From an uncultured Actinomycetes bacterium (lineage in GTDB: Bacteria > Chloroflexota > Dormibacteria > Dormibacterales > Dormibacteraceae), in assembly GCA_964383855.1 (NCBI GenBank), contig CAYLIP010000004.1:482-64481 (forward strand): a stretch of 64,000 nt of DNA, written 5' to 3'. The position numbers and the translations under genes were made by a program. Of this stretch, positions 3 through 47,085 are shown in pieces. Every line of letters begins with the position of its first letter. Positions within the stretch are counted from its first letter, which is position 1. The notes beneath the pieces are model-generated. The model saw only the letters and a program-made list of their open reading frames with translations. It made no database searches and was not told the DNA's origin.

Positions 3-620
3 GTGCGCGAGGTGACGGATGACGAGTACCGGGAGGTCCTCGCCATCTGCGTCCGGGTGATGGCCGATTCAGGGATCCCCCACTGCTTCATCGGCGGCCT
101 CGCGTCGGCCATCTACGGCCGCCGGCGGTCGTCCCACGACCTCGATCTCTTCGTCAGGCCCGAGGACGCCGACCGCACTCTCAAGGCCCTGGCCGGGAAC
201 GGCTTCGAGGTCGAGCGATCCGACCCCGACTGGATCTTCAAGGCCGAGCGCGGCGGTCTCCTGGTCGACGTCATCTTCCGTTCCAGCGACGGCACTCTGC
301 TGGACCCCGAGCTCGAGAACCACATCCGGCTGGTCGACCACCTGGGCCTCCGGATCCCGGTGATTCCGCCAGAGGACCTCCTGATCACGAAGGTCTCGGC
401 CTTCCGCGAGGACACCCCGAGGCAGTGGTTCGACTGCCTCGCCGTCCTCGACCACCTGGAGCCGGACTGGGCCTACCTGGTCGAGCGCGCGCGGGGCAAG
501 CCCCATCGCGTGCTCTCCCTCCTGCTGTTTGCCGCCAGCAATGGCTGCCGCGTGCCCGGCGACGTCCTTAAGGAGCTGCTGGAAGCGGCGCTGCGGGTCG
601 ACCGGGAGCGCGCCGCTTGA
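3..620 (+). CDS. nucleotidyltransferase-fold protein (possibly 5'-truncated by the window edge)
   Basis: ORF starts with GTG at nt 3 and may extend upstream. GGLASAIYGRRRSSHDLDLFV fits the G-[GS]...D-x-D minimal nucleotidyltransferase core. Third codon positions are GC-rich. Confidence 0.6.
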   Translation: MREVTDDEYREVLAICVRVMADSGIPHCFIGGLASAIYGRRRSSHDLDLFVRPEDADRTLKALAGNGFEVERSDPDWIFKAERGGLLVDVIFRSSDGTLLDPELENHIRLVDHLGLRIPVIPPEDLLITKVSAFREDTPRQWFDCLAVLDHLEPDWAYLVERARGKPHRVLSLLLFAASNGCRVPGDVLKELLEAALRVDRERAA

Positions 621-22717: not shown

Positions 22718-23581
22718 TCAGGTCTGAGCGCCGAAGATGACGACCGCCCTCAGGGCGAGGACGCCCACCAGGACCGCCGCCGGGGCGAGCAGCGGTGAGC
22801 GGCCGCGCAGGAAGAACGGCGTGGCCAGGCCGGCCAGGACCAGCAGCCAGAGCACGATCATGAGGGGCGAGAAGAGCCGCGCCACCGTCCCCGCGACCGC
22901 CACGGCGGCCAGGAAGATGACGATCAGCACGGCCTCGAGGAGGACGAAGTAGCGGTCGGCCCCCTCGACCCGAAGCACGCTCGGCCGCAGCTCGCGCCGC
23001 CAGCCGGCGAGCAGCAGGAGGAGCGCGGCCGAGCCGGAGAGGCCGGAAGCCAGGAAGAGCCCGCCCAGCGGCCAGGCGTCTGACCAGACAGGCTGGTTGG
23101 AGACCGCGAGCAGGACGCCGGTGTAGGCGGCGACGTAGAGTCCGGCCAGCGAGCCGGCGACCATCCAGGCCGCCGCCAGGGGACCTGTGAAGAAGCCGAG
23201 CGGCGAGCCCCGCAGGCCCATGAAGGCGTCGACGGCCGAGACGAACGCGAACAGCCCGAAGAGGAGCAGCGCGTAGGCGCCGACCGACATCGGCGACCAG
23301 GCCTTGAAGGCGGGCGTGCCGGCGCCGGTGTCGACCAGCATGTGCCAGAAGCGGAGCGGCTGGCCGAGGTCGACGGTCAGGAAGACCGGGCAGAGGGCGA
23401 CCGCCAGCAGCGACACGATGAAGGCGGTGCGGGAGGCACTGACGTCTTCCGGGCCGCCCCAGAGGCGCAGCATCGTACCCATCACGTACGACCCGCCGGC
23501 TATCCCGGCCAGAAAGAAATAGGCGAGGATCCACCACTCCCAGGCCGGCGCGCGGACGAAATGCTCGGCGGCCAGGTACAT
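22718..23581 (-). CDS. NrfD/PsrC-type polytopic membrane subunit of the formate dehydrogenase complex
   Basis: ATG at 23581 overlaps the fdnH stop. EWWILAYFFLAGIAGGSY..DLGQPLRFWHML is typical of the NrfD family. The track ORF's first 167 aa are an out-of-frame overlap. Confidence 0.8.
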   Translation of the reverse strand: MYLAAEHFVRAPAWEWWILAYFFLAGIAGGSYVMGTMLRLWGGPEDVSASRTAFIVSLLAVALCPVFLTVDLGQPLRFWHMLVDTGAGTPAFKAWSPMSVGAYALLLFGLFAFVSAVDAFMGLRGSPLGFFTGPLAAAWMVAGSLAGLYVAAYTGVLLAVSNQPVWSDAWPLGGLFLASGLSGSAALLLLLAGWRRELRPSVLRVEGADRYFVLLEAVLIVIFLAAVAVAGTVARLFSPLMIVLWLLVLAGLATPFFLRGRSPLLAPAAVLVGVLALRAVVIFGAQT

Positions 23582-24513
23582 CACCTCTTCCTCCTCGTGC
23601 CCGCACCGTCGCCGCCGCCGTCGCCGTCGCCGCCTTCGCCCCCGCCCCGCGGCCGGCCCGCCGCCGGCGCCGGCTCCCTGGCCGGCTCGACCGGCACCGT
23701 CTCGGTCATGGCCGGCGGCGACCCTCCGCGGCGGCGAAGGGCTATCAAGCCGCCGACCACGGCCAGCACCGCCGTCACGACCGCGCCCAGGTAGCCGGGA
23801 ATGTTGTTGCGGCTGGGCAGCACCGCATTGGCGGCGCTGGGCAGCTTGTATGTCTCCGGCTCGTCCATGAGCAGGAAGAAAGAGTTGAGGCCGCCGTAGA
23901 CGCTGGTGTCGCGCCCGTAGAGCTGCGCCTTCTTGAAGCCCTGTCCCTGGAGCAGAGCCAGCCGGGCGTCGGCCGCCTTGTGGAGATCGGCGAGCGTGCC
24001 GAACTGGATCGACTGCGTGGGGCAGGCCTTGGCGCAGGCGGGCATGAGGTTGTTCTGGAGCCGGTCGTAGCAGAGCGTGCACTTGTGCGCGGTCCCGGTC
24101 GTCGAACTGAAGCCGATCACCGAGTACGGGCAGGCGGAGATGCAGTCGCGGCAGCCGTTGCAGACCGGCTGCTGGATGAAAACGGTGTCGAACTCGGTCC
24201 GGATGATGGCACCGGTCGGGCAGACCTCCATGCAGGAGGCGTGCTGGCAGTGCTTGCAGACGTCGGACATCATGAGGAACGCCTGGCCGCCCGCCGCCGT
24301 CGGCTGCTTGATCTCGCCGCCGGCGGGAACGGTCTCGATGAACCGGACATGGCGCCAGTTCTGAGCGTCGAGCTGGCCCGTGTTGTCGAAGGAGTCGAGC
24401 AGCAGGTTGGGCTCATTGCCCTCGAGCTGGTTCCACTCCTTGCAGGCCACCTCGCACGCCTTGCATCCGATGCAGACGGAGGTGTCGGTGAAGAACCCGA
24501 CCGGCTCGGCCAC
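23581..24513 (-). CDS. fdnH: formate dehydrogenase iron-sulfur (beta) subunit with C-terminal TM anchor and Gly/Asp-rich tail
   Basis: Several ferredoxin Cys clusters are present (CIGCKACEVACKEWN, CKHCQHASCMEVCP, CNGCRDCISACP, CTLC..CAKACP). Confidence 0.9.
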   Translation of the reverse strand: MAEPVGFFTDTSVCIGCKACEVACKEWNQLEGNEPNLLLDSFDNTGQLDAQNWRHVRFIETVPAGGEIKQPTAAGGQAFLMMSDVCKHCQHASCMEVCPTGAIIRTEFDTVFIQQPVCNGCRDCISACPYSVIGFSSTTGTAHKCTLCYDRLQNNLMPACAKACPTQSIQFGTLADLHKAADARLALLQGQGFKKAQLYGRDTSVYGGLNSFFLLMDEPETYKLPSAANAVLPSRNNIPGYLGAVVTAVLAVVGGLIALRRRGGSPPAMTETVPVEPAREPAPAAGRPRGGGEGGDGDGGGDGAGTRRKR

Positions 24514-24529: not shown

Positions 24530-25321
24530 TCAAAACCCCATCAGGTTGGGCGTGATCTTGGCCAGCCCGCGGTCGCGCGCGTAGAGGTCGAGGGGGATGG
24601 CCGCCAGCTCGTCAACCACGGGAACCGCCCGTCCGTCCTTGGCGCAGTCGACGGTGACCAGGTACCGGCGGCAGGACGCGCAGGCGTCGACGCGCAGGCT
24701 CGGAAAGACGTCGTGGTCGGCGTAGACGGGGAGATTCCGGCTCTCCGATTCACCGCAGCCGGCGCAGACCATGCGCGCGACCGGCCAGGCCCGCGCGCAG
24801 CGCGAGCACTCGAGCATGCGCTGGCCGGTCAGCAGCGCCTCGCCGCCGGCCGTGAAGACGGAGACCTGGGGCGGCGCGCCGCACTCAGGGCAGTGCAGCC
24901 GATCCGGCGCTTGAGGACGCGGCATGACGCCGGGCAGCGCCTCCAGCACCGGCGCGCACGAGGCTCGCGCGAGATACCGCGCGGCCGGCTCCTGCTCGGC
25001 CCCGGTCAGCCAACCGCCGATCGCATCCTGCACGCCGCCCGCATAGACCAGCGCCTGGAGGGCGGTCACCAGCGTCTCCGGACCCACCGCCGCGGTGACG
25101 GTGACCACGGCGGGCGCCACCGCCTCGGCCACCCAGCGGGGCAGCTCGTCGAAGCCGGGGCCGGCCTCGGTGGCGGCGGTGCCCGCCCGCTCCTGCACAT
25201 CCAGCAGCGATGCGTAGAGGCGCAGCATCTCGCCGGCGTGAGGGTAGCGTTCGGCCAGCTCGCGGGCGCGCGTCCTGCGCGCCTGGTAGGTCGCGATCGG
25301 GGTCCCCAGTGCGGTGCTCAC
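24530..25321 (-). CDS. fdhE: formate dehydrogenase accessory protein FdhE
   Basis: Paired CxxC motifs (CPECG, CSRC, CAGCG, CASCRRYL) in the FdhE-like order. Located between the fdnG and fdnH genes. Confidence 0.8.
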   Translation of the reverse strand: MSTALGTPIATYQARRTRARELAERYPHAGEMLRLYASLLDVQERAGTAATEAGPGFDELPRWVAEAVAPAVVTVTAAVGPETLVTALQALVYAGGVQDAIGGWLTGAEQEPAARYLARASCAPVLEALPGVMPRPQAPDRLHCPECGAPPQVSVFTAGGEALLTGQRMLECSRCARAWPVARMVCAGCGESESRNLPVYADHDVFPSLRVDACASCRRYLVTVDCAKDGRAVPVVDELAAIPLDLYARDRGLAKITPNLMGF

Positions 25322-28300
25322 AGCTTCTTGATGTTGACGAGGAACGACTTGAACTCGGGGGTGCGCGAGTTGGCGTCGCCCACGAACGGGGTGAGGGCGT
25401 TGGCAAGCCAGTTCTTCGAGCGGTCGGGGTTCTGCTCGGCCGATACGCCGACGAAGCCCCAGTGGATGGGGATCCCGATGTGATAGACCTTCTTGCCGCC
25501 GACCGTGAGCGGCCCCAGTCGCTTGGTCACAAGCGCGGCCACCGTCAGCTTGCCGCGGGGGTTGAACACCTCGACCGCGTCACCGTTGGCGATGCCAAGC
25601 TTGGCGGCCAGCTCCTCGGGCACCTCGACGAAGGCCTGGGGCTGCAGGCCGACCAGCAGCGGCACGTGCTGCGTCACGTAGTGCTCGTGCTCCGTCAGGC
25701 GGTAGCTGGTGGCGATGTACGGGTAGTCCTTGGCGGTGCCGAACCGGCTCTTACGGCCCGCCTGCTGGTCGTACAGGAAGGCCACCGGGGACTCGCTCTG
25801 GCCGGGATGGAGCGGGTTCGGGATCGGCGACTCGATGGGCTCGTAGTGCTCGGGAAAGGGCCCGTCGTTGAGCGAGTTGCTGAAGAGCCGGCCCACCCCC
25901 TCGCCGTTCATGATGAAAGGCAGCCAGGCGACCGGATCCTGGGTGATCGGCTTCATGGTGGGCGGGTAGTCGGGCACGTCGCCCACCCACTTGGAGCCGT
26001 CCCACTGGATGCCGGCGCGCTTGGGGTCCCAGGGCTTGCCGTCCAGGTCGGCGGAGGCGCGGTTGTAGAGGATCCGCCGGTTGAGCGGCCACGTCCAGCC
26101 CCACTGGTGGTAGAAGCCAAGGCCGGTCGGATCGTTCTTGGCCGGGTCCTGGATGCCGTCGCGGCGCTTCATGAGGTTGCCGGCGTCGGGATAGGAGCCG
26201 GTGTAGATCCAGTCGCCGGCGGTGGTGGAGCCGTCGTCCTTCAGGTTGGCGAAGGTCGTCAGCTGCTTGCCGGTCGTGAGGTCCTGGCCATTGATCTCGC
26301 GGGCGAGCTCGTCCAGGTCGGGCTTGACCGGGTCCTTGTAATTGAAGGTCAGCGCCTTGATCGGGTCGGGAAACTTGCCGCCTGACTGGTAGAGCTTGCG
26401 CACCCGCTGAAAGAGATCGGCCAGGATCCAGTGGTCGTGCCGCGATTCACCCTCGGGCGGGATCACGGCGTCCTTCCACTGGCCCATCCGCCCGCTGTTG
26501 ACGAAGGAGCCCTCCTTCTCGATCCAGTGCGTCGCGGGCAGCATGAAGACCTCGGTCTGGATGTTCTTGGGGTCGAGGCCGGGCGCATGCCAGAACTCGC
26601 TGGACGTCGTCTTGAGCGGGTCCATCACGACCAGCCACTTGAGGTTGGACAGCGCTTGCAGGACCTGGTTGGAGTCGGGACCGATGCTGGTCGCCGTCAT
26701 CCCGCTCAGGATCACCCCCTGCATCTTTCCCTTCAGCGCCTGGTCGTAGATCGAGATCCAGCTCGAGTTGGCCGCCGGCTTGGGGATGTAGGAGTACGCG
26801 AAGTCGTTGTCCTTGGTCGCGGCATCGCCGTACCAGGTCTTCAGCAGCGAGACCAGGAACTTCTTGTAGTTGAGACCGAAAAAGTTCCAGGAGTTGGGGT
26901 CGCTCTTCTTGGGCGGCGCTTTGTCGTTGTACTGGGCGACCGTCTGCCATGCGGGATCGGGGATCTTGAGATAGCCGGGAAGGATCTCCCAGGAGATGGC
27001 GTTGTCCGTGTTGCCCTGGATGTTGGCGTGTCCGCGCTCGGCGTTCATGCCGCCGCCGGGCATGCCCATGTTGCCCAGCAGCAGCTGGAGGACGGCGCCG
27101 CTGCGGATCAGCTGGACGCCGGTGGTGTGGTGCGTCAGGCCGACCGCGTAGACGATCGTCATCACCTTGTCCGGCTTCCCCATCTCGCCGACCAGCCTGG
27201 CGACCTCCAGGAACTGGTCCTTAGGTATGCCGGTGACCTGCTCCACCATCTCCGGCGTGTAGCGCGAGTAGTGCTTCTTCATGAGCTGGAAGACGGTCTG
27301 CGGGTCCTGCAGCGTCATGTCGCGGGCGGCGTAGCTGTCGCTGCCGGTGGTCTGCGGTCCCTGGCCCTGCCCCAACCCTGCGTTCTGGTCGTTCTGGCTG
27401 GGCGGCGTGGCGTTCTGGTACGCCCAGGTCGAGATGTCGTAGCTGCGCTTGGCCTTGTCGTAGCCGCTGAACAGCCCGTCCGTGAAGCCGAAGCCCTCCT
27501 TAACCAGGAAGGAGGCGTTGGTGTAGTGCTTGACGTACTCGGCCTGGTGGAGGTTGTTCGAGAGCACGTAGTTGATCAGTCCGCCGAAGTAGGCGACGTC
27601 GCTACCCGTGCGAATGCGCAGGTAGATGTCGGCCATCGCCGAAGTCCGCGTGAAGCGCGGGTCGGCGTGGACGATCCGGGCACCGCCGCCGCTGCCCGGA
27701 CCCCGCTTGGGATCGAGCTTGGCCTTGACGAACCACTGGAACCCGACCGGGTGCGCCTCCGCCGGGTTGGCGCCGTTGATCAGGATCAGGTCGGCGTTCT
27801 TGATGTCGCGCCAGTGGTTGGTCATGGCGCCTCTCCCGAACGTGGCCGCCAAACTGACGACCGTCGGGCCGTGTCAAACGCGGGCCTGTTGCTCTATGTG
27901 CACCACGCCAAGGCCACGCATGACCTTGGCGGCGAAGTAGCCCTCCTCGCTGCTGAAGGCGGCCCCGCCGGCGAAGGCGATGCCCTCGGTCCGGTTGACC
28001 GTGTTGCCGGCCGCATCCTGGGCGACGAACGTCGCGTCCCGCGAAGCCTTGATGTTCTGCGCGATCTTGTCGAGCACGAAGTCCCAGGACTTCTCCTGCC
28101 AGGCGGAGCTGCCGGGAGCCCGGTAGAGCGGCTTCTGAACGCGGCGGGCGGACACGGCCAGCTGCATGGAGCTGGCGCCCTTGGGACACAGCCGGCCCTC
28201 GTTGACCGGGCTGTTGGGGTCGCCTTCGATCTGCAGGAGCTCGGTCTTGCCGCCGGCGCCGGTCCGCGTGTAGGCGACCAGCGAGCAGCCCACCGCGCAG

Positions 28301-28458
28301 TAGGGGCAGACGCTGTGCGATTCCCTGGCGTCGGCGATCCGCAGGCCCTGGCTCACGGTGCGTGCCTGAGCGAGATCAAAGCCGAGCCCGGCCACGCCCA
28401 GGGCGGCGGTGGAGGCTGCTCCAATCTTGATGAAGTCACGCCTGGAGACGTGAGTCAT
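25318..28458 (-). CDS. fdnG: formate dehydrogenase-N-type catalytic (alpha) subunit, selenocysteine-containing (UGA at 27874..27876), Tat-exported
   Basis: Track ORFs 27874..28458 and 25318..27852 are in one frame (3141 nt). The junction IEQQARV-U-HGPTVVSLAATFGRGAMTNHW matches the E. coli FdnG Sec site (ARVUHGPTV). Also has the twin-arginine signal SRRDFIK and a CPYCAVGC FeS motif. Confidence 0.9.
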
Positions 28459-35351: not shown

Positions 35352-36437
35352 GTGGGTATGCCGCGCTCGCGAGAGGCAGCGGCGCGCCGGCGGCGCATCG
35401 CCCTCATCTCTCCGCCGTGGTACTCGGTCCCTCCAGACGGGTACGGGGGCATCGAGCTGGTCATCTACCTGCTGGCCAAGGAGCTTGGCCGGTGGGGCCA
35501 CGACGTCACCGTGTTTGCGGCCCAGGGCTCAGACCCGGGCGTCAGGGTGGAGGCGCTCGCCGACGCCGGCTGGGCCCGGGACCTGGGCACGCGCAATCAG
35601 CGGGCGCGCGAGGCAACCTACCTTCGCCGCGTCTACGACCGGCTGAAGAGGGATCAGTTCGACGTCGTCCATGAGCACAACGAGTACCCGGGGATGATGG
35701 TCGCGCACACGCTCGGCCTGCCCGGGCCGGTGGTGGCGACGGTGCACGGCCCGATCGGAGAACCCGAGGCCACCTTCCTGCGCGAGATCGATTCGGAGAT
35801 CGGCCTGGTGGCGATCAGCGAGGCCCAGGCGAGCGCCGCTCCCGGGGTCGCCTGGGACGCCGTCGTCCACAACGCGATCGATACCTCGCAGCTCGACTTC
35901 TCGGCCGAGAAGGACGAGTACCTGATTCAGCTTGCGCGCATCAACCCGGACAAGGGCCAGCACACCGCCATCGAGGTGAGCCGAGCCGTCGGGATGCCGC
36001 TGGTCCTGGCCGGAAAGCTGGATCACGATCCGCGGTCGCGCGAGTACTTCGAAAAAGAGATCAAGCCGAATCTGGGCGAAGACGTCCGCTGGATCGAGAA
36101 CGTCCAGGGCGACGAAAAGCGCCGGCTGCTCGCGCGCGCCCGCGCCATGCTCTTCCCTCTCGAATGGGACGAACCGTTCGGACTCGCCATGGTCGAGGCG
36201 ATGGCCTCCGGGACGCCGGTCGTCGCCTTCCCGAAAGGCGCCGCGGCGGAGCTCGTCGAGCCTGGCGTCTCCGGCTTCCTGGCCGCGGACGTGGGGGAGA
36301 TGGTCGACCTGGTGCGCCGCGTCGGGGAGATAGATCCGCACACCTGCCGCCAGCACGTCGAAAACGGCTTCGACGCCGAGCGCATGGCGAGCGGCTACGA
36401 GGCGGCCTACGAGCTCGCCCGGCAGCGCTACCGATGA
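35352..36437 (+). CDS. GT4-family (GT-B fold) glycosyltransferase
   Basis: ISPPWYSVPPDGYGGIELVIYLLAKELGRWGHDV at the N-terminus and the C-terminal E-x7-E region FPLEWDEPFGLAMVEAMASGTPVV. Confidence 0.85.
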   Translation: MGMPRSREAAARRRRIALISPPWYSVPPDGYGGIELVIYLLAKELGRWGHDVTVFAAQGSDPGVRVEALADAGWARDLGTRNQRAREATYLRRVYDRLKRDQFDVVHEHNEYPGMMVAHTLGLPGPVVATVHGPIGEPEATFLREIDSEIGLVAISEAQASAAPGVAWDAVVHNAIDTSQLDFSAEKDEYLIQLARINPDKGQHTAIEVSRAVGMPLVLAGKLDHDPRSREYFEKEIKPNLGEDVRWIENVQGDEKRRLLARARAMLFPLEWDEPFGLAMVEAMASGTPVVAFPKGAAAELVEPGVSGFLAADVGEMVDLVRRVGEIDPHTCRQHVENGFDAERMASGYEAAYELARQRYR

Positions 36438-37876
36438 CCGCACATGCCCGGAAGCACGGCGCGGCGGATCGCGGAGACCGTGGCCGAAGTTGCCACGGCG
36501 GCCGCCTCAGCTCGTCTTTTCAAGAGGTAGCAGGGCTCGCAGGCTGCTCGCGCCTGGGCGGGCGCCGGGCGATCCAGGCGGCGGATGACCCGGGCCGGCA
36601 CAAGCATCGTGAAGGTGCTTCCCTCCCCCGGCTCGCTGACGACCTCGAGCGTGCCGCCCATCAGCTCCATCAGGCGCCGGCTGATGGGAAGCCCGAGGCC
36701 CGTGCCGGAGGCGGAATCGCCGCCGGTGTCGAGCTGGACGAACTCCTCGAAGATCCGCCCGACGTCGGCGCGAGCGATTCCCGGCCCGGTGTCCTGGACG
36801 TCCACCCGCACCTTCTCGCCGCTCTCGACCTCCTGGCAGCGAACGGCCACGCGGCCGCCGGCTGGAGTGAACTTGACCGCGTTGCTGACCAGGTTGGTCA
36901 GGACCTGGCGCAGCCGGATCGGATCCGCATAGACCGGCGACTCGCCAGGCGCGCTGACATCAAAGACCAGCGATTTCTGCGCCGCCAGGGGCGCCGCCTC
37001 CGCTGCCACCCCCCGCACGACCGCCGCCATGTCCACCCAGGCCGGCTCCATGGTGGTGCGGCCGGACTGGACCTTGGCCAGGTCGAGGACCTCGTTGATG
37101 ACGGACAGGAGGTGGTTGCCGCTGACCTCGATGTTGCGGACGTAGCGGCGCTGCTGGGAGTTGAGCGGGCCGAAGTCCCCCGACGCCAGGAGCTGCGCGA
37201 AGCCGAGGATTGAGTTGAGCGGCGTCCGCAGCTCGTGGCTCATGGCGGTCAGAAACTGGCTTTTGGCCACGCTCTCCCGGCGCGCCTGCATCGCCTCGAG
37301 CCGGTCGGAGACGTCGCGCAGCGAGGCGCAGAAGAGGGGGCCTCGCTCAGTCGCCAGCACGGTCACCGAGAGATCGAGCGGAAACGTGGTCCCATCGGTC
37401 CGCCGGCCCACGGCCGTGACCCGATGGTCTCGGCGGCTGTCCTGCGGCGTGGCCAGGAAGTCCGAGAATGCCTGCCGTTGAGCCGCGATCAGGCTCTCGG
37501 GATCGAGCAGCATGGCCACCGGCCGGCCGGCGACGTCACGCGCGGGGCGCCCGAACGCGAGCTCGGCGGCGCGGTTGAAGTCGACCACCCGCCCGCTTCC
37601 GTCGACCGAGATGATGGGATCCAGCGCCGCCTCCATCAGCTCGCGCCTGAGCTCGGTCTCGACCAGCGCCCGGCCCTCGGCGGGGCGGCCGGCGACGAGT
37701 TCTCGGCCCATCAGCCGAAGCGCCGTCCAGGGGTCGGCGGGTGCGCCGGCCAGAGCGCTGCCCGCGACCGACGTGATGGCGCGCGCGAGCCTCACGTGGG
37801 CGATGACGGCGACCGCCGCCACCGCAATCGATACCAGCGCCACAAGCATGAAGAACACGGGCGGCATCGAGCCCAA
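36428..37876 (-). CDS. membrane-anchored PAS sensor histidine kinase
   Basis: N-terminal TM helix, PAS region, H-box MSHELRTPLNSI, N-box NLVSNAVKF, G-box GTGLGLPI. Confidence 0.9.
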   Translation of the reverse strand: MGSMPPVFFMLVALVSIAVAAVAVIAHVRLARAITSVAGSALAGAPADPWTALRLMGRELVAGRPAEGRALVETELRRELMEAALDPIISVDGSGRVVDFNRAAELAFGRPARDVAGRPVAMLLDPESLIAAQRQAFSDFLATPQDSRRDHRVTAVGRRTDGTTFPLDLSVTVLATERGPLFCASLRDVSDRLEAMQARRESVAKSQFLTAMSHELRTPLNSILGFAQLLASGDFGPLNSQQRRYVRNIEVSGNHLLSVINEVLDLAKVQSGRTTMEPAWVDMAAVVRGVAAEAAPLAAQKSLVFDVSAPGESPVYADPIRLRQVLTNLVSNAVKFTPAGGRVAVRCQEVESGEKVRVDVQDTGPGIARADVGRIFEEFVQLDTGGDSASGTGLGLPISRRLMELMGGTLEVVSEPGEGSTFTMLVPARVIRRLDRPAPAQARAACEPCYLLKRRAEAAAVATSATVSAIRRAVLPGMCGHR

Positions 37877-38129
37877 CCTTAGACCGCTACCGCCGCCTGC
37901 ACTTGACAGCGCCTGCGACGGCTGCGCCCTGTCCCAGACCGGCGGTTGAAGCTTGAAAGCGACATGACCCTTGCCCTCTCCTCGGCGTCATTTCAGCACC
38001 GGGTGGGCCTGACCGAGCGTCATTTCGCCGTCAATCCACCGTCTTCGAGGGAGCGTCCAAAAGAGGCTTCGTCACGCAGGTCACTTGACGGCGGATACTC
38101 GTCCGACCAATACCACTGGAGGTGCGCAG

Positions 38130-38225
38130 ATGCGCTCGACCCTGATCCGCCTTTCGTTCGCCGCCCTGACCGTCTTCGCCTTCGCCCACACGGCGACGGC
38201 AGCATGGGTTTCCAACTGGCCATAA
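38130..38225 (+). CDS. 31-codon ORF: signal peptide + C-terminal heptapeptide AWVSNWP (candidate secreted signalling pro-peptide), absent from the ORF track
   Basis: GGAGGTG lies 6 nt upstream of the ATG. The product is MRSTLIRLSFAALTVFAFAHTATA/AWVSNWP, with a basic n-region, a hydrophobic core and an A-x-A-like cleavage site. It ends 51 nt upstream of the HTH-TPR gene. Confidence 0.45.
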   Translation: MRSTLIRLSFAALTVFAFAHTATAAWVSNWP

Positions 38226-38251
38226 CCTCGTAAACAAGGGGTTACACCGGG

Positions 38252-38281
38252 GGCATGGGCGACTTAACATCCGCCCATGCC
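38252..38281 (+). promoter_or_regulatory. 10-bp stem-loop that sequesters the start codon of the HTH-TPR gene
   Basis: GGCATGGGCG (38252..38261) pairs with CGCCCATGCC (38272..38281) across a 10-nt loop. The ATG at 38277 lies inside the 3' arm. Confidence 0.4.
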
Positions 38282-39644
38282 TGAACGTCGCCGGCGTCGA
38301 GCCGGCGTCCACGTGCGGCCGGAGGCCGTCCGTCAAGCACGGCGCGAAGCCGGGCTGTCGCTCGCCCAGGTCGCCGGCGGCGAGGTGAGCCGGAACGCGA
38401 TTCACCTCGTTGAGAGCGGTCGCGCGCGCCCGTCAATCGCCACCCTTCGCCTGATCGCCCAGCGCACGGGCCGGCCGGTGGAGTTCTTCCTGGCCACCGC
38501 GCCCGACGCCGCCGCGGAGACCTGGGCGGCCGACAACCTGCAGCTGGTCGAGCTCGAGAGCCGACTGGCGCGCGCCGAGCTGGCAGCCGCGCTCGAGCTC
38601 GGTGAGCGGCTGCTCGAGCAGGTCGGAGAGGGCCCGCTGGCCGCCACTGTCAAGCTCCGGCTGGCAGAGGCCTGCTGCCGGCTGCGGCGGCCCGAGGCGG
38701 CACTCGAGCACCTGTCGGGAGTGCGGGCCGCGCTCGAGGCGACCGGCGACGACTGGGCCGCGATCGAGGCCCTCGACTGGGAGGCGGCCGCCTACTTCCT
38801 GCTCGAGGACCCGAGCGCCGTCGACCTGCTCGAGGAAGCACGCAGGCGCTGCCTGGCGCTCGCGGCGCCCGCTCCCTGGCTCCTCGCACGCATCGAGACT
38901 CACCTGGCCACCGTCCACGTCCACCGCCATTCCTGGCGCAATGCCATCCGGGCCTTCGAGGCCGCTATCAGCGCTGGCGGCGGCCTGTTCGACCTGCTCG
39001 AGCTGGCCCACGCCCACAGCGGCCTGGGCACCGCCTACCAACACTTGGGCCAGCCGGCCAAGGCACTCGTCCATGCGTCGAAGGCGCTCGCGCTCTACGA
39101 GCTGCGCGCCGAAGCCCGCATGCGGGCCAACGCCCACAACAACATCGGCGACCTGCTGCTACACGAAGGTCAGCTCGACGCGGCGGAGCGTCACATCCGG
39201 GAGGCGTTGACGGCTTACGCGGAGCTGAAGGCCGAGCGGCAGGGGCTGGGTTACGCGCTGACCAGCCTGGCCGAGCTCGAGGTGCGCCGCGGCAACGGCC
39301 TGGCGGCGCTCGAAGCGGCACTGGAGGCGATCGAGACGGCGCGCGAGGCGGGCGAGAAGGTGGTCATCGGGATGGCCCACATCGAGCTGGGGGCCGCCCA
39401 TGAGCTGCTGGGCCGGACGCGCGATGCGGATGGCGCCTTCGACCAGGCCCTCGCCGTCCTGGCCGCGGTCGACCAGCCGCTGCACCTCCGGGATGCGCAC
39501 ATGCGGGTGGCGGAGATCCTCGAGGCCCGCGGAAGGGTCGACCAGGCGGCCGCCCACTGGCGGGCGGCCGCGCAGCTCGGACGTGACCATGGGACCGGCA
39601 TCGCCCAGCCGGCCGGTTGGCTGGGAGCCGCCGCAGCCGGCTAG
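38277..39644 (+). CDS. XRE-type HTH transcriptional regulator with a large TPR domain
   Basis: The HTH is VRQARREAGLSLAQVAGGEVSRNAIHLVESGRARPSIATLRLIAQRTG. About 380 aa of Ala/Leu-rich TPR-like repeats follow. Confidence 0.85.
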   Translation: MPERRRRRAGVHVRPEAVRQARREAGLSLAQVAGGEVSRNAIHLVESGRARPSIATLRLIAQRTGRPVEFFLATAPDAAAETWAADNLQLVELESRLARAELAAALELGERLLEQVGEGPLAATVKLRLAEACCRLRRPEAALEHLSGVRAALEATGDDWAAIEALDWEAAAYFLLEDPSAVDLLEEARRRCLALAAPAPWLLARIETHLATVHVHRHSWRNAIRAFEAAISAGGGLFDLLELAHAHSGLGTAYQHLGQPAKALVHASKALALYELRAEARMRANAHNNIGDLLLHEGQLDAAERHIREALTAYAELKAERQGLGYALTSLAELEVRRGNGLAALEAALEAIETAREAGEKVVIGMAHIELGAAHELLGRTRDADGAFDQALAVLAAVDQPLHLRDAHMRVAEILEARGRVDQAAAHWRAAAQLGRDHGTGIAQPAGWLGAAAAG

Positions 39645-39732: not shown

Positions 39733-40257
39733 TCAGGGCTGGTGGGCGCGCTCCACCCGCTCTGCGGCGGCCATCACCTCGCGCTGTCCAGCCTCCAGGT
39801 GCTGCAGGATCTGCACCGTGATCTCGGTGTTGCGCCGGATCTCGTCGAGGATGGTCAGCGTCCGCTCCTCGGTCTGCTGCGCCTCGTCGGCCGCATGCTC
39901 CAGCGTCAGCCGGTCCTTTTGCGCCTGGCGGTTGCCGGCCAGCAGCAGGACCGGGCCCGTGTAGGCAGCCTGAACACTGAACATCAGGTTCAGCAGGATG
40001 AACGGGTAGGGGTCCCACCGCAGCGTCAGCCCGATCAGGTTTAACCCGACCCAGGCCAGCACCAGGATCGTCTGGACGATGAGGAAGGTCCAGGAGCCGA
40101 TCCCCGTCGCGACCCTGTCTGCAATGCGCTCGCCGAGCGTCGCCTCGTCGTGGTGGACGACATTCACCGGGTGGGAGTGCGCCTCCTCTCCCGACTTGTG
40201 ACGCCTCAGATGTCCAACCGGCTTGGCGGCCATCTCGGCTGCCTCTGCATCCGCCAT
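39733..40257 (-). CDS. DUF1003-like membrane protein
   Basis: GSWTFLIVQTILVLAWVGLN..WDPYPFILLNLMFSVQAAYTGPVLLLAGNRQ is the DUF1003 signature by recall. Confidence 0.8.
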   Translation of the reverse strand: MADAEAAEMAAKPVGHLRRHKSGEEAHSHPVNVVHHDEATLGERIADRVATGIGSWTFLIVQTILVLAWVGLNLIGLTLRWDPYPFILLNLMFSVQAAYTGPVLLLAGNRQAQKDRLTLEHAADEAQQTEERTLTILDEIRRNTEITVQILQHLEAGQREVMAAAERVERAHQP

Positions 40258-40423
40258 CAGTTCCTCCAGGTGTTGCGTGCTCTGCTCGCGCAGGCCCGCG
40301 AAGTATGTACCGAGGATGCCCTATTCCAGGTCTGATGCGCCGAAATCGGCGGCCGGCAGCCGCCCGGCAGCTTCCGATCGTGCCGATCACCGGCACTAAA
40401 CATGATATAAGTGATATCAGAGA

Positions 40424-41962
40424 ATGTCCCAGTCCCAACGCCGCAACAACCGCGGGCCCGGCGTCGAGTCAAAGCCTGGCTCTCACCGACGACCCAGGCC
40501 GGGCGCCGGCGGTGGCTCCGCCGCCAACGGCGGGCCGGTCAACGATCCCGTGCTTTCCGCCCTGCCCGTGGGCCCCGACCAGGAGCCCGAGCTTGACGAG
40601 CTCCTGAAGGAGAAGGGGGAGCGGTCGGGGCAGGCCGCGGCCACCGGCGTCCCCCCCGCCGGGCGCACGACCCTCGACGAGGCGCGGCGGCGGGGCCCGG
40701 TCGGGTGGCTCCAGCTCCTCGGCCCCGGGCTGATCACCGGTGCCAGCGACGATGACCCGAGCGGGATCGGTACGTACTCCCAGGTCGGCAGCCAGTTCGG
40801 CTTCGGCATGCTCTGGATGGCGCTCTTCACCTTTCCTCTCATGGCGGCCATCCAGGAACTCTGCGGACGGATCGCGCTCGAAACTGGCGTCGGGCTCGGC
40901 GTCGCGCTCAGGCGCAAGTTTCCGACCTGGCTGATCGGCGTCTGCATCCTGGCGCTCTTCGTGGCCAACACCTTCAACATCGGCGCCGACATCGGCGCGG
41001 TCGCGACCGGCGGCTCGATGCTCACTCGTGGCCACGTCCCTGAGGGCTGGCTCGTGGTGCCGGTGGCGCTGCTGGTGCTGGGACTCCAGTTCTTCGTCAG
41101 CTACCGGCGGATCTTCTCGATCTTCAAGTGGCTGACGCTCGCCCTCTTTGCCTACATCGTCACCGGGCTTATCGCGCACCCCGACGCGCTGACCGTGCTG
41201 AAGTCCACCCTCGTCCCTCACGTCGAGCTGTCGAAGGACTTCATCACGGCGATGGTCGCGGTGCTCGGCACCACCATCTCGCCCTACCTGTTCTTCTGGC
41301 AGGCCTCCTCAGAGGTCGACGAGATGCGAGCCGCCGGAATGCAGACGGAGGCCGACCGGCGGGGCGTCAAGATCTCCGAGCTGAAGGCGGCCAGGACCGA
41401 CATCCTGATCGGGATGTTCTTCTCGCAGGTGGTGATGTACTTCATCATCTTCACCACCGCCTCCGTGCTGCATGCGCACGGCAAGACCGACATCCAGACC
41501 GGCGAGCAGGCGGCGGCGGCGCTGACGCCCTTCCTCGGACCGTTTGCCTTCGTCGCCTTCGCGGTCGGGCTGATCGGGACCGGGCTCCTCGCCGTCCCCA
41601 TCCTCTCCGGCTCGGCGGCCTACGCCGCCAAGGAGTTCTTCGGGATCAAGGGCGCGCTCTCGACGCGGCCGATCTACCGTCCGACCTTCTACGGGATCCT
41701 CGCCCTGGCCACGCTCGCCGGCCTGACCATGAACTTTCTGCACCTCGACCCGATCAAGGCGCTCTTCTACACGGCGGTGATCAACGGCGTCGTGGCGCCA
41801 CCGCTGATGGTGCTGATCATCCTGCTCGGGTCCGACCCGGCCTACATGAACGACAAGGTGAGCGGACGGCTGTCGAAGGCGCTGACCTGGATCGGCGCCG
41901 CCGCCATGGCGGTGGCCGCGGTGGCGATGCTGGTCCTGGTGATCCCGGGCATCAAGCTCTGA
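40424..41962 (+). CDS. Nramp-family divalent metal transporter (distant clade, long disordered N-terminus)
   Basis: [21 protein letters not shown] is the DPGN-like region, followed by about 11 TM helices. Confidence 0.85.
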
Positions 41963-41983
41963 CCGCCGCCGAGGCGGAGGCCG

Positions 41984-42643
41984 TCAGCAGCAGCGTACGC
42001 GGCCCTCGCGCGCGCCCTCGATCGCCTCGCGCGTCTCGGGCACAAGCCAGACCAGCATTAGGATCGCGCCCGCGTAGTCGGCCCACCACCAGCCCAGGAA
42101 GGTGTTGAGCGCCACGGCGGCCAGCACGGCCCCGGCCAGGTAGGCGCAGGCGATCGACTCCGCGATGTCGGCCTGCAGCGCGGCACTGCCGAGGACCCGG
42201 TTGGCCCGCCGCTTGGCCGCCGCCAGCAGCGGCATCCCGACCAGGGCCGCCCCGGCGACGAGGAGGCCGGGCACCGATCCCTCCGGACGGAGGCGGAGCG
42301 CGAGCCCGCCCGCGGCCGCCGCCAGCACGTAGAGGCAGAGCAGCACGAGCAGCCCCGCCGCCAGCCAGGCCGCCCGAGCCTCGACCGCGTTGACGCGGGC
42401 CGGCGAGCTGGCGCGCTGCTCAACCGCAAGCCTCCAGAGGAGCAGGGCGCCGCTCAGCAGCTCGATCAAGCTGTCGGTGCCGAAGGCGCCGAGGGCGACG
42501 CTTCGGGCGCCCGCCGCGGCCGCGATGGCGACCCCCGATTCGACCGCCATCCAGGCCACGGTGAGCACTTCCAGGAGGAGGGCGGCGCGAACCGCCTGGC
42601 GCCGCCCCGGCGAGTTCACTTGAGCTAGTTCTGGTATCTGCAT
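41984..42643 (-). CDS. cation-efflux (CDF-like) membrane protein lacking a cytoplasmic domain
   Basis: Six hydrophobic helices; FGTDSLIELLSG resembles the CDF TM2 metal site. Divergent from the DtxR-family gene. Confidence 0.65.
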   Translation of the reverse strand: MQIPELAQVNSPGRRQAVRAALLLEVLTVAWMAVESGVAIAAAAGARSVALGAFGTDSLIELLSGALLLWRLAVEQRASSPARVNAVEARAAWLAAGLLVLLCLYVLAAAAGGLALRLRPEGSVPGLLVAGAALVGMPLLAAAKRRANRVLGSAALQADIAESIACAYLAGAVLAAVALNTFLGWWWADYAGAILMLVWLVPETREAIEGAREGRVRCC

Positions 42644-42645
42644 TC

Positions 42646-42678
42646 GGTTAGCCTAGCAGCCATGTTAGGGTATCCTAA
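42646..42678. promoter_or_regulatory. candidate DtxR/IdeR/MntR-type operator
   Basis: The perfect inverted repeat TTAGG-GTAT-CCTAA lies at 42665..42678, with a TTAGCCTA half-site at 42648..42655. Both resemble the TTAGG..CCTAA arms of iron boxes. They lie between the divergent CDF-like and regulator genes. Confidence 0.45.
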
Positions 42679-42683
42679 AAGAC

Positions 42684-43360
42684 GTGGTGGAGACGAGGAC
42701 CAGCTTCACGCAGGCGCAGGAGGACCATCTGAAGGCCCTCTACCACCTGGGCGGCGCGGATCATGCCGTGCCGACCGGGGAGCTCGCGGTGCGTCTTGGC
42801 ATCTCGCCCGCCTCGGTCAGCGAGATGGTCGGGCGACTGGCCGCCCAGGGCCTGGTCACCCATGACCGCTACCGCGGGCAGCAGCTCACAGAGGAGGGCC
42901 GCTCGGCCGCCCTCGAGCTGGTCCGGCACCACCGCCTGATCGAGATGTTCCTGGTCCAGGTCCTTGGCTACGGCTGGGACGAGGTTCACGAGGAGGCCGA
43001 GCGCCTAGAGCACGTGATCTCGGAGCGGATGGAGGAGCGGATCTTCGAGCTGCTCGGCCGGCCTGATCTCGATCCGCACGGCCACGCCATACCCACCCGC
43101 CAGGGCCGGCTGCGGGAGGTCGCCTCGCGCCCGCTCAGCGGCTGCACCGCCGGCGAGAACGTGGTCGTCCGCGTGGTCGCCGACGACGACGCGGCGCGGC
43201 TGCGCGAGCTCCGCCGGCGGGGATTGGTTCCGGGCGCTCGACTCGAGGTGCTGCTGGGGACCGCCTACGACAGCCCGATCGAGGCGCGGCTCGGGGGTCA
43301 CCGGATCAGCGTTCCTCTCGGACTGGCGCGGGGGGTCTTCGTGGAGGGCACCGCGACCTG

Positions 43361-43361
<1 letters not shown>
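42684..43361 (+). CDS. DtxR/IdeR/MntR-family metal-dependent transcriptional regulator with C-terminal SH3/FeoA-like domain
   Basis: EDHLKALYHL..GELAVRLGISPASVSEMVGRLAAQGLV..RHHRLIEMFL..HEEAERLEH. GTG start. Confidence 0.9.
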
Positions 43362-44659
<1,298 letters not shown>

Positions 44660-44712
44660 GTCCCCGGCGGGCCTATGGGAACCGCCTGCTCTCCGGTCTT
44701 CTGTCGCGGCCT

Positions 44713-45021
44713 CTATGCGGGCTCGCGGGTCCGCATGGCTTGGTGGAGAACGCTCCCATCGTGCCAGTCCGGGTCGGCGACCAGGCGCTCCCGCAGCTTG
44801 CGGTAGGTCGCGTCCATCTCGGGGCTGTCCGCGTTGGCCCGGTAGAGATCCTCGCTCTCGAACACGACGCTGATCCAGATCTCGTCGGGATCGGCGGTGC
44901 TCCGGTAGATGGTGTGGTAGAGCCATCCCTCCGGCGCCGAGCTCTCGAAGCGCTTGAGCTCGTCGATCAGCCCGTCCACCTGACCGGGCCGGCAGCGATA
45001 CCTGGCGATGGTTCCGAACAT
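44713..45021 (-). CDS. small ABM/dimeric alpha-beta-barrel-like protein
   Basis: ATG at 45021 (MFGTIARYRCRPGQ...). 102 aa with a ferredoxin-like pattern. The family call is tentative. Confidence 0.5.
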   Translation of the reverse strand: MFGTIARYRCRPGQVDGLIDELKRFESSAPEGWLYHTIYRSTADPDEIWISVVFESEDLYRANADSPEMDATYRKLRERLVADPDWHDGSVLHQAMRTREPA

Positions 45022-45165
45022 GTTCGTCACCCCCTGTATGACCAGCCGGAAAGCGGCCGGTTCGGAGATGGTAGTCCCAAATTTGGCCGCGTGCCCGTGG
45101 ATCTCGGACTGCCCGATGGGCCGGCCGGGCACGCGATCGCTGCCTGTGCCATCATCTGTGGCCTC

Positions 45166-47085
45166 ATGGCCGACCAGCGGCCGCCGCCGGCTGACAAGCG
45201 TCCGGCACCCCAAGGCGCGCCTCCTCGGAGCGCGATGCAGTCGCCGCGATTCTGGCTCGTGTTCCTGCTCGTGCTGGTGCTCAACGTCCTCATCACCAAC
45301 GTCTTCTTCGGTCCCTCACAGCCGGCCTCGGTCGCTCTCTCCTACAACGACTTCAAGGCGCAGCTGGCGAGCGGCAATGTGGTCGGCGTCACCACCACCG
45401 GGAACGCCATCAGCGGTTTGACCCGCCACCCCGTCAAGGAGTCCTCCTCAAAGTCGACCGCCACGCACTTCACGACCGAACGGCCCTCCTTCGCAGCTGA
45501 CGACCTCGAGGGACTGCTCGAGGCGCACGACGTCACCGTCAACGCCAAGCCCGAGAACCCGCCGCCGCCCTTCTGGGAGACGCTGCTGCTGAGCTTCGGC
45601 CCGACCGCGTTGATCATCCTTGGGCTGCTCTACTTCCTGAACCGCGCCGCTCGCGGCGGTGCCGGCGGCATCCTGGGCTCCTTTGGCCAGAGCCGAGCGC
45701 GCGTCTATGACCCGGAGACCCCGGGCACGACCTTTGCCGACGTCGCCGGGATCGACGAGGTCAAAGAGCAGCTGCAGGAGGTCGTCGACTTCCTTCGCGA
45801 GCCTCAGAAGTACGAGCGCCTGGGCGGCAGGATCCCCAAGGGCGTCCTGCTCATAGGTCCGCCCGGCACCGGCAAGACGCTGCTCGCCCGCGCGGTGGCG
45901 GGCGAGGCGCGGGTCCCGTTCTTCAGCCAGTCGGCATCGGAATTCGTGGAGGCGATCGTCGGCGTGGGGGCCTCCCGCGTCCGCGACCTTTTCGCCAAGG
46001 CTCGGGCCGCCGCACCGGCGATCATCTTCATCGACGAGCTCGACGCCATCGGGCGCAGCCGCAGCGCCGCGATGCGCCTGGGCGGTAACGACGAGCAGGA
46101 GCAGACCCTCAATCAGATCCTCACCGAGATGGACGGCTTCGATGTTCGCCAGGGCGTGATCGTGCTGGCGGCGACCAACCGGGGCGACGTCCTCGACCAG
46201 GCGCTGCTGCGTCCCGGCCGCTTTGACCGGCGGATCACGGTGCAGCCGCCCGACCGGCGCGGCCGCGCGGCGATCCTCCGGATACACAGCAAGGCCGTGC
46301 CTCTGAACGCCGACGTCGATCTCGATGACATCGCGAGCCAGACGGCGGGCTGGGTCGGCGCCGACCTCGCCAACCTGGTCAATGAGGCGGCCCTCGGCGC
46401 GGCGCGGCGCGGCGTGTCCCAGGTCGCAACGCAGGATTTCAACGAGGCGGTCGAGCGGGTGCTGCTCGGCGCCGAACGGAACCTCACGCTCACGCTGCAG
46501 GACCGGGAGCGCATCGCCTACCACGAATCGGGCCATGCCCTGCTGGGGCTCCTGGTGCCCGGCGCCGACCCCGTCCGGAAGGTCACGATCATCCCGCGCG
46601 GCATGGCGCTCGGCGTCACGGTTCAGAGCCCGATCGACGACCGCTTCAACTACGGCGAGGACTACTTGCGCTCACGGATCGTCGGGGCGCTGGGCGGGCG
46701 GGCGGCCGAGAAGCTGGTCTACGGGGTGGTCAGCACGGGCGCCGAGAACGACCTCCAGCAGGTGACCCAGATCGCGCACCAGATGGTGGTGCGCTGGGGC
46801 ATGAGCCCCCGGATCGGGCCGGTCGGCTTCTCAGAGGATGGCGGGACCGCTGGCGCCGGGATCCAGCGGCCCTACAGCGAGGCCACCGCTCGGGAGGTGG
46901 ACGCCGAGGTCAAGCGCATCGCCGAGGAGTGCTTCGCGGACGCCAGCCGCCTGCTGGCCTCCAACCGGGAGCGCCTGGATGCGCTGGCGGCGGCGCTGCT
47001 CAAGGAGGACTCGCTCGACGAGGCGCAGGTGCTCGAGGTGACCGGACTTCAGCCGGCCACGCAATCTGGTGTGAGCGCTGGCTGA
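45166..47085 (+). CDS. ftsH: ATP-dependent zinc metalloprotease FtsH
   Basis: Walker A GPPGTGKT, Walker [12 protein letters not shown] region, zinc site HESGHAL. ATG at 45166 (alternative 45235). The track ORF from 43555 is an out-of-frame read through mntH. Confidence 0.9.

Follow-up and report, generated by a model that had tools for sequence, protein, structure and literature searches.

A stretch of 64,000 nucleotides (hereafter the window) from contig CAYLIP010000004.1, assigned to an uncultured bacterium of the Dormibacteraceae, contains a gene for a 31-residue peptide of secreted type directly upstream of a gene for a cytoplasmic regulator with a helix-turn-helix (HTH) and a tetratricopeptide repeat (TPR) domain. 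That this pair of genes exists and is conserved is essentially certain, and we propose that in this Dormibacterota-like soil bacterium it probably forms a self-contained RRNPP-type system for peptide signalling, made up of two genes. Peptide quorum sensing, with re-import of the peptide and its binding to the TPR domain, is the best-supported mechanism; we infer it from the lines of evidence below and regard it, with some reserve, as the probable one. Dormibacterota are an abundant uncultured soil lineage, sister to or within the Chloroflexota.

Results

The peptide gene is conserved upstream of its regulator

The cassette was compared across 80 soil-metagenome loci, two genome loci and 16 further loci obtained via exact protein look-up. 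Of the metagenome and genome loci with enough upstream DNA, 74 of 76 carry an open reading frame (ORF) of 30-32 codons on the receptor's strand and upstream of it. The gap between the two genes amounts to 29-59 nt in 79 of 80 measured loci (mode 55 nt) and to 248 nt in the remaining one. The two exceptions are a locus in which the peptide ORF starts at TTG (L002) and an internally deleted or frameshifted copy, MRKLFSSAISKAPKRSRGPIGPTP (L071, 643-717), which has lost the hydrophobic core, has kept the GPIGPTP end and is possibly a pseudogene or an assembly error. Further clades, with receptor identities as low as ~35%, have an ORF of this design in the same place. The search of relatives for small ORFs before orthologous HTH-TPR genes, which a preliminary description of this DNA had named as a check on its reading of an RRNPP-like pair, thus gave a positive answer across clades. 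Moreover, gene callers have called the 31-aa ORF independently in several assemblies, and such peptides are present, unnamed, in the protein collection.

The receptor family itself is sharply bounded. In a word-indexed profile search, 48 clusters (283-477 aa) scored above 300 bits, followed by generic TPR proteins at 130 bits or less; in an exhaustive profile search, the top 150 matches listed include more than 100 distinct 50%-identity representatives with full-length matches in a single stretch. The named relatives are metagenome-assembled genomes of Candidatus Dormibacteraeota/Chloroflexota and one contig binned as Terriglobales (Acidobacteriota). On the latter (L094/L095:4859-4954), a GTG-initiated 31-aa ORF precedes a receptor of 39% identity, reflecting either mis-binning or horizontal transfer outside Dormibacterota. 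A phage or mobile origin was considered and rejected, as the viral contigs of IMG/VR hold no receptor relatives and the viral structure library BFVD returned generic TPRs only.

The 31-codon frame is a translated gene

The 31-codon ORF noted in the preliminary description is confirmed together with the Shine-Dalgarno (SD) motif GGAGGTG upstream of it (Table 1); the spacer to the ATG, reported there as 6 nt, measures 5 nt. Across 59 distinct sequences of the largest clade, entropy by codon position in the ORF is 0.76/0.39/1.32. The ratio of nonsynonymous to synonymous changes (pN/pS, Nei-Gojobori) amounts to 0.43 over codons 2-24 and to 0.32 over codons 25-31, as opposed to 1.04 and 2.07 in the shifted frames. 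The best-conserved non-coding stretch is GGAGG at -12 to -8, with an entropy of 0.4-0.9 versus ~1.6 in the flanks (59 distinct loci). This pattern of variation identifies the ORF as a genuine gene that is translated and subject to purifying selection, conserved at the level of amino acids and not of nucleotides alone.

The window has a G+C content of 69.8%. We screened its ATG-initiated ORFs of 25-45 aa on both strands with a signal-peptide heuristic, which demands a basic n-region, a 12-residue hydrophobic window, a small-x-small site and at least four residues after it. A single one out of 225 passes, namely the peptide ORF, and this one also has an SD.

The product is built as a minimal signal peptide with a seven-residue tail

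The same heuristic is passed by all 66 distinct homologues, each of which retains the ribosome-binding site and the signal-peptide architecture; this supports the Sec-type design and the heptapeptide tail that had been read from the window sequence. All 66 peptides start with Met-Arg-(Lys), followed by a hydrophobic core of ~18 residues (mean Kyte-Doolittle score of residues 4-21, 2.3). At position -1 relative to the predicted cut, 65 of 66 have Ala; at -3, every one of them has V/A/T; and Pro or Gly occurs at -7 to -4 in 55. Across clades, M1 and A24 (the -1 residue) alone are invariant, with R2 nearly so. The layout corresponds to the n-h-c organisation of a substrate of signal peptidase I, and the predicted cut would leave seven residues, or eight in some peptides, the first of which is Asp or Glu in 50 of 66. 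We also considered a lipoprotein reading of the 'ADC' variants and discarded it, given that Asp at -1 does not suit a lipobox and that the Cys is not conserved.

The predicted tails fall into classes that follow the receptor, where clades are named here by receptor identity. AWVSNWP and EWVSNWP belong to the window and its 92% relative, and DYNPGWP, DFVQTWP, DYVPTWP and DFVPTWP (D[YF]xxxWP) to the 54-56% clade. The large 42-46% clade, hereafter the GPTP clade, has [DGESA]-x-[IVP]-GPTP(K/R); the relatives at ~36-40% have STGGPCC, DVVGPCCA or DTMGSCC (xxGxCC); and the 36-38% clade has DGIPSGW or DGIPPGW (DGIPxGW). The peptide on the contig binned as Terriglobales ends in ...SQA-EFIPPM. Receptors that share a tail class are at least 53% identical and those of different classes at most 45%, apart from the two WP classes, which stand at 53-55%. 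From the window to the GPTP clade, identity falls to 62% in the HTH and to 40% in the TPR region. The sequences show tail classes that track receptor clades and an HTH that is more conserved than the TPR domain. Within the GPTP clade, position 2 of the tail is as variable as non-coding DNA, and GPTP itself is invariant.

The regulator carries an HTH and a TPR superhelix

ORF coordinates and Pfam matches bear out the 455-aa XRE-type HTH/TPR protein that the preliminary description had placed 51 nt downstream of the peptide ORF. Its TPR region matches TPR_12 (E 1.8e-21), TPR_1 (5.5e-17) and TPR_2 (1.4e-14), and permissive searches of Pfam and NCBIfam return generic TPR and HTH models only. An AlphaFold2 model from a 36-sequence alignment (pLDDT 87.5) is all-helical, with a short HTH, a linker and 22 further helices. 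When this model was compared with the PDB by Foldseek, the TPR domain of LGN/Pins ranked at the top (E 6e-9, template modelling score TMt up to 0.79), next came designed TPRs and OGT, and then Rap proteins (E 1e-7 to 2e-6, TM 0.6-0.78). The Rap matches are RapF-PhrF (4i9c), RapI (4i1a, TMt 0.78), Rap-phi3T with pheromone (8rsv), the pLS20 Rap-Phr* (6t46) and RapJ; among them, RapF, RapI, Rap-phi3T and Rap-pLS20 are matched in complex with their peptides. A profile search of PDB sequences with hmmsearch gave a similar order, with LGN at E 1e-28 and Rap at ~1e-12, under LGN, kinesin light chain, OGT and AfsR. The LGN match reflects generic repeats of the TPR_12 type, and hence fold similarity alone cannot assign the receptor to the RRNPP proteins. 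From the model, we read the receptor as one that would behave like a peptide-binding TPR regulator; no homology to RRNPP subfamilies was detected.

The pair was also compared with the RRNPP signature of Bernard et al. 2023, who scanned Firmicutes and viruses for a small propeptide with a Sec signal adjacent to a receptor of 250-500 aa with TPRs (PMC10075063). The propeptide, at 31 aa in the window and 30-32 aa in the 66 distinct homologues, lies within the range of 10-100 aa; a Sec/signal peptidase I signal (the signature also admits SHP-like peptides) is indicated for all of them by the heuristic, which evaluates n-region charge, h-region and the -3/-1 rule; the receptor, at 455 aa in the window and 426-477 aa across its family, has the expected size and TPRs detectable by profile; and the two genes are direct neighbours on the same strand. 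The earlier reading of an RRNPP-like pair therefore holds for propeptide size, receptor size, TPRs and adjacency and, going by the heuristic, probably for the Sec point as well; it does not extend to a match with any RRNPP subfamily profile. With no homology to these subfamilies detected, the alternative raised in the preliminary description, that of a convergent analogue, may apply.

A candidate operator and a start-codon hairpin accompany the pair

The intergenic region upstream of the peptide ORF is shared with a divergent PAS histidine kinase gene. It holds an array of CGTCA boxes, CGTCA/TGACG occurring five times in 170 nt where 0.53 are expected from the window density (P = 2e-4), and a direct repeat, GCGTCATTTC, in two copies 32 nt apart. 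Similar arrays occur in L003, L086, L087 and L088. They may provide additional sites for the receptor or belong to the control region of the kinase promoter.

Closer to the peptide gene lies an imperfect inverted repeat, the candidate operator, which is kept in all five members of the window and 54-56% clades. Its equivalent in the GPTP clade is TGAGTTGAC-N6-GTCAACTCA, a 9-bp inverted repeat that contains TTGACA and leads into gac-GACACT, with a further ~29 nt, SD included, after this hexamer; in the 36-38% clade it is GTCAAGTGG-N4-CCACTTGAC. Over 65 loci, GTCAA/TTGAC reaches 1.95 per 85-nt promoter versus a background of 0.12 in the flanks. The inverted repeats at the peptide promoter are thus clade-specific and, on alignment, share a GTCA/TGAC core. 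This is consistent with the well-conserved HTH, and the receptor may bind there. The cross-clade alignment further suggests that GATACT may be the -10 element of a sigma-70-like promoter; the distance from this hexamer to the ATG, ~30 nt including the SD, is alike in the window and GPTP clades. A scan with the strict sigma-70 consensus found no promoter here, and no intrinsic terminator was found between the peptide and receptor genes. When the 64-kb window was scanned for regulon sites, no second copy of the window-type operator appeared, and looser matches stayed at chance level.

No SD precedes the ATG of the receptor, which lies in the 3' arm of an RNA hairpin whose arms form a perfect 10-bp inverted repeat in the window. 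The folding energy is -21.8 kcal/mol here and -19 to -34 kcal/mol over 50 distinct loci. In an alignment of 52 distinct sequences, 95.5% of the cells are paired, CG to UA double changes occur in 12 sequences and G.U pairs are frequent; a structured RNA transcribed from this strand explains this better than a palindrome in the DNA. The hairpin is present in both the minimum free energy (MFE) and the centroid structure of the whole predicted transcript; no Rfam family matches it or the intergenic region. Codons 1-3 of the receptor are frozen, while codons 7-20 show third-position wobble, indicating that this ATG is the true start. As the hairpin begins 25-28 nt past the peptide stop codon, it is too distant for a terminating ribosome to open. 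It may lower translation of the receptor, or it may mark where a short and abundant mRNA for the peptide ends.

Table 1. Coordinates of the cassette and of the features around it (positions in the window)
Feature	Position	Strand	Remarks
PAS-HisKA-HATPase histidine kinase	36428..37876	-	divergent; Pfam
CGTCA box array	37986..38033	.	boxes at 37986, 38018 and 38029; last two 11 nt apart
Candidate operator, imperfect inverted repeat CGTCACG-N7-CTTGACG	38070..38090	.	ends 3 nt (gcg) before the -10-like hexamer
-10-like hexamer GATACT	38094..38099	+	aligned to GPTP-clade GACACT, there 17 nt after TTGACA
Shine-Dalgarno GGAGGTG of the peptide ORF	38118..38124	+	5-nt spacer to ATG
Peptide ORF	38130..38225	+	ATG 38130, TAA 38223-38225; 31 codons; product MRSTLIRLSFAALTVFAFAHTATAAWVSNWP
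Predicted Sec-type signal peptide MRSTLIRLSFAALTVFAFAHTATA, codons 1-24	38130..38201	+	n-region MR, h-region, A-T-A site
Predicted mature heptapeptide AWVSNWP, codons 25-31 plus stop	38202..38225	+	
RNA hairpin	38251..38282	+	arms 38252-38261 and 38272-38281, 10-nt loop; holds receptor ATG 38277-38279
Receptor/regulator, 455 aa, cytoplasmic	38277..39644	+	starts 51 nt after the peptide stop codon
Receptor XRE-type HTH	residues 18-70, nt 38328-38486	+	Pfam HTH_3, E 2e-7
Receptor TPR superhelix after helical linker	residues ~78-438	+	~9-10 repeats

Genomic neighbourhood

The histidine kinase has one hydrophobic stretch at its N-terminus, followed by PAS domains, and lacks an obvious extracytoplasmic sensor domain. 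It occupies the same divergent position in L083, L003, L086 and L087 (61-89% identity, tblastn). It is syntenic in the window and 54-56% clades only, being absent from this position in the GPTP clade and not linked to the cassette in the 36-38% clade. Hence, it may be a member of the regulon and is not a core part of the system. The other flanking genes vary by locus (cytochrome bd, SDR, cupin, MFS, luciferase-like and others), and no neighbouring target gene is conserved across the receptor family, which makes the peptide-receptor pair a self-contained module. Beside the cassette, neither modification nor transport nor immunity genes of the kind expected for a ribosomally synthesised and post-translationally modified peptide were found, the neighbours being unrelated housekeeping genes. 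The window looks chromosomal (phosphoenolpyruvate carboxykinase, DNA ligase, FtsH, formate dehydrogenase).

Directly downstream of the cassette, at 39733-43361, lie genes for a DUF1003 protein (-), an Nramp/MntH-like transporter (+), a cation-efflux protein (-) and a DtxR/MntR-type repressor with a FeoA domain (+). No link between this metal-homeostasis cluster and the cassette was found, and the cluster is not conserved in related loci.

Elsewhere in the window, a formate-dehydrogenase-like molybdopterin oxidoreductase with a TAT signal and with Fe4S4 and molybdopterin domains (25318-28458, minus strand) is interrupted by one in-frame TGA at 27876-27874 in the context QQARV-TGA-HGPTVV, which we take to be the classic selenocysteine site of FdhA/FdnG. 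This ORF is probably one selenoprotein and not two genes; FdhE-like (24530-25321) and NrfD-like (22718-24082) genes adjoin it. The FtsH-like ORF at 43555-47085 (FtsH_ext, AAA, Peptidase_M41) has an N-terminal extension of ~560 aa and, as an ORF, a third-position G+C content below that of its neighbours, and its start is probably over-extended.

Discussion

With these data in mind, we propose the following course of events. After export, the pre-peptide would be cleaved behind A24, and AWVSNWP would be set free on the outside of a monoderm cell. Dormibacteraeota have been placed in an inferred monoderm clade with Chloroflexi and the Candidate Phyla Radiation (bioRxiv 10.1101/2021.05.31.446380), and a Sec-exported peptide would thus be released straight to the outside, as in Firmicutes. 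At high cell density, the heptapeptide would be re-imported, presumably via an oligopeptide permease encoded elsewhere, and would bind to the concave face of the TPR superhelix. Binding may then alter the contact of the receptor with the inverted repeat over the peptide promoter, leading to autoregulation, and the receptor may also act at the promoters of a regulon. The hairpin, in turn, might hold translation of the receptor low relative to that of the peptide from the same transcript.

Several observations weigh against this proposal. By fold and by sequence, the receptor matches eukaryotic LGN/Pins and designed TPRs best, and Rap only after them; the Foldseek top 50 contain neither NprR nor PlcR, Rgg or AimR; and no RRNPP-specific profile (RNPP_C, Rgg TIGR01716, AimR, ComR) matched at E <= 10 in Pfam and E <= 0.1 in NCBIfam. 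From its overlap with the -35/spacer region, the candidate operator could serve repression or activation alike, and it is not tied to the receptor. No Opp/Dpp-type binding protein (SBP_bac_5) or permease was found among the 37 window ORFs scanned. At 31 aa, the precursor is shorter than any Sec-dependent RRNPP propeptide we know of, and since it would lie wholly inside the ribosome tunnel at termination, its export must be post-translational. Finally, the most distant relatives (P0034, P0037 and P0241) have no peptide ORF, and in P0037 and P0241 (L096:21-1052, L098:1261-2445) a TPR-only protein of 340-390 aa is encoded upstream on the same strand instead.

Other explanations concern, in part, the nature of the small ORF itself. 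Spurious ORFs are plentiful in GC-rich genomes, 55 being listed in 6 kb here, and conservation could then be due to promoter or untranslated-region nucleotides. Such a chance frame is effectively refuted by the three-base periodicity of variation and by a pN/pS well below 1 in the peptide frame only; in addition, the length stays constant at 30-32 aa even though the sequences differ at most third positions, the SD is kept, and no other small ORF of the window passes the signal-peptide screen. If the frame is translated, its product might still be an uncleaved small membrane protein, a signal-anchor that tethers or antagonises the regulator or acts in the membrane, as the product is very short and very hydrophobic and its cleavage is predicted. 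Yet the invariant Ala at -1, V/A/T at -3 and the helix breaker at -4 to -7 are cleavage features for which an anchor has no need, and an N-in/C-out orientation would point the tail outside, away from the cytoplasmic TPR protein with which it co-varies; we thus find this explanation quite improbable.

The small ORF could also be a regulatory leader, i.e. an upstream ORF (uORF), whose translation or stalling controls the receptor in cis via the hairpin while its product has no function. It lies on the same strand, 29-59 nt before an SD-less start codon locked in a conserved hairpin, and its tails mostly end in Pro-stop or Pro-Lys-stop. A C-terminal Pro is known to slow termination, as in arrest of the TnaC/SecM type. 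The hairpin, however, is out of reach of the terminating ribosome, and no anti-hairpin pairing is seen in the MFE and centroid folds. Arrest peptides make contact with a conserved structure, the ribosome tunnel, and would not be expected to vary with the receptor clade, as these tails do, some of them ending in CC, GW or PPM; nor would a leader peptide need an n-h-c layout with an invariant -1 Ala and V/A/T at -3. Altogether, we consider a leader function very unlikely. Somewhat less remote, albeit still unlikely, is that the peptide is secreted without being the ligand of the receptor, either as an effector (e.g. an antimicrobial, surface-active or metal-binding peptide) regulated by the HTH-TPR protein or as a signal sensed outside the cell by a membrane kinase such as the divergent PAS kinase. 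Peptide design and gene adjacency would be explained equally well, the cassette is in synteny with a PAS histidine kinase gene in the window clade and the 54-56% clade, and the window shows no importer. But neither in the large GPTP clade nor in the 36-38% clade is the kinase linked to the cassette, it has no obvious extracytoplasmic sensor domain, and an unmodified 7-aa peptide without modification or immunity genes nearby is unlikely to be antimicrobial. The tail class shifts together with the TPR domain against a conserved HTH, which is predicted for a ligand-receptor pair and not required of a target gene.

We thus return to a peptide that would act as the ligand of the regulator encoded next to it, and judge the cassette to be a variant of RRNPP-type signalling, convergent or anciently diverged. 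RRNPP(A) has been described as a family of Bacillota and of their plasmids and phages (PMC10075063, PMC9765709, PMC12700828); the named relatives found here belong instead to Dormibacteraeota/Chloroflexota, apart from the contig binned as Terriglobales, and no paper in the literature searched links RRNPP with Chloroflexota or Dormibacterota. We hold the balance to be about even for the wider claim that Dormibacterota use an independently evolved or anciently diverged form of peptide quorum sensing with a cytoplasmic receptor, characterised by the smallest possible Sec-type precursor (24+7, no pro-region), several pherotype classes co-diversified with the TPR domain and a start-codon hairpin that sets dosage. 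If this is true, RRNPP-style signalling would be a feature of monoderm Terrabacteria broadly and not a speciality of Bacillota, and the logic of cytoplasmic HTH/TPR peptide signalling would be carried to another phylum, one known from metagenomes only. The fixed 24+7 precursor and the start-codon hairpin would be new design features for such systems. Synthetic heptapeptides (AWVSNWP, DxIGPTP, DGIPPGW), soluble receptor and the candidate operator are reagents that offer an in vitro test without a cultured host, and, should the peptides govern decisions between growth and dormancy, they could possibly aid cultivation.

Comparison with known systems

In function, the closest analogue is the NprR-NprX system found in the Bacillus cereus group. 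Both receptors are cytoplasmic and combine an XRE-type HTH with about nine TPRs (NprR has ~420 aa, compared to 455 aa here), and in both systems an adjacent small gene encodes a pre-peptide, exported in the case of NprX and predicted to be so here, whose C-terminal 7-8 residues form, or here would form, the signal, in NprX reportedly the heptapeptide SKPDIVG. The peptide gene lies upstream here, whereas it lies downstream of NprR there, and the 31-aa precursor has no pro-region between the signal peptidase site and the predicted mature peptide, NprX being ~43 aa long. Furthermore, the profile relation is limited to generic HTH_3/TPR models with NprR outside the top 50 fold matches, the host is a member of the Dormibacterota and not of the Bacillota, and the receptor start codon here sits in a hairpin. 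The general model of the NprR-NprX type has been described (PMC9765709).

Rap-Phr systems of Bacillus, plasmids and phages provide the best bacterial structural match for the TPR superhelix and share a Sec-type propeptide, which is predicted in the present case, and clade-specific peptides, and the variability of tail position 2 in the GPTP clade resembles the single-position variability in Phr peptides (PMC9765709). Rap, however, has a 3-helix bundle in place of the HTH and targets response regulators, and Phr is excised from a longer pro-peptide by extracellular proteases, with phr located downstream of, and overlapping, rap.

In Rgg-SHP and PrgX-PrgQ/iCF10 of streptococci and enterococci, precursors of ~21-35 aa likewise carry the signal in their C-terminal 7-8 residues, and the receptors are XRE-HTH repeat-domain proteins that bind at the peptide promoter. 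Mature SHP peptides commonly start with Asp or Glu, a likeness to the acidic first mature residue that prevails in the present peptides. In contrast to the n-h-c signal with an A-x-A site found here, SHP and PrgQ have no Sec/signal peptidase I signal and use Eep and PptAB (PMC10075063). Rgg is moreover only ~280 aa long and matches TIGR01716/RNPP_C, neither of which matches the receptor described here.

Outside peptide quorum sensing, LGN/Pins of animals resembles the receptor in its TPR superhelix, the inner groove of which takes up extended peptides, but it is a eukaryotic scaffold protein without HTH and unrelated to signalling peptides. Arrest and leader peptides (TnaC, SecM, Erm leaders) are similar in their short upstream ORF, Pro-rich C-terminus and downstream start within a hairpin, and differ in that the ribosome at the stop codon of the small ORF cannot open the hairpin here, and in the signal-peptide design and clade-specific tails of the present peptides. 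In summary, what sets the Dormibacterota cassette apart from the known systems is its phylum, a peptide gene upstream on the same strand, a precursor without pro-region, the absence of detectable subfamily homology and the hairpin at the receptor start codon.

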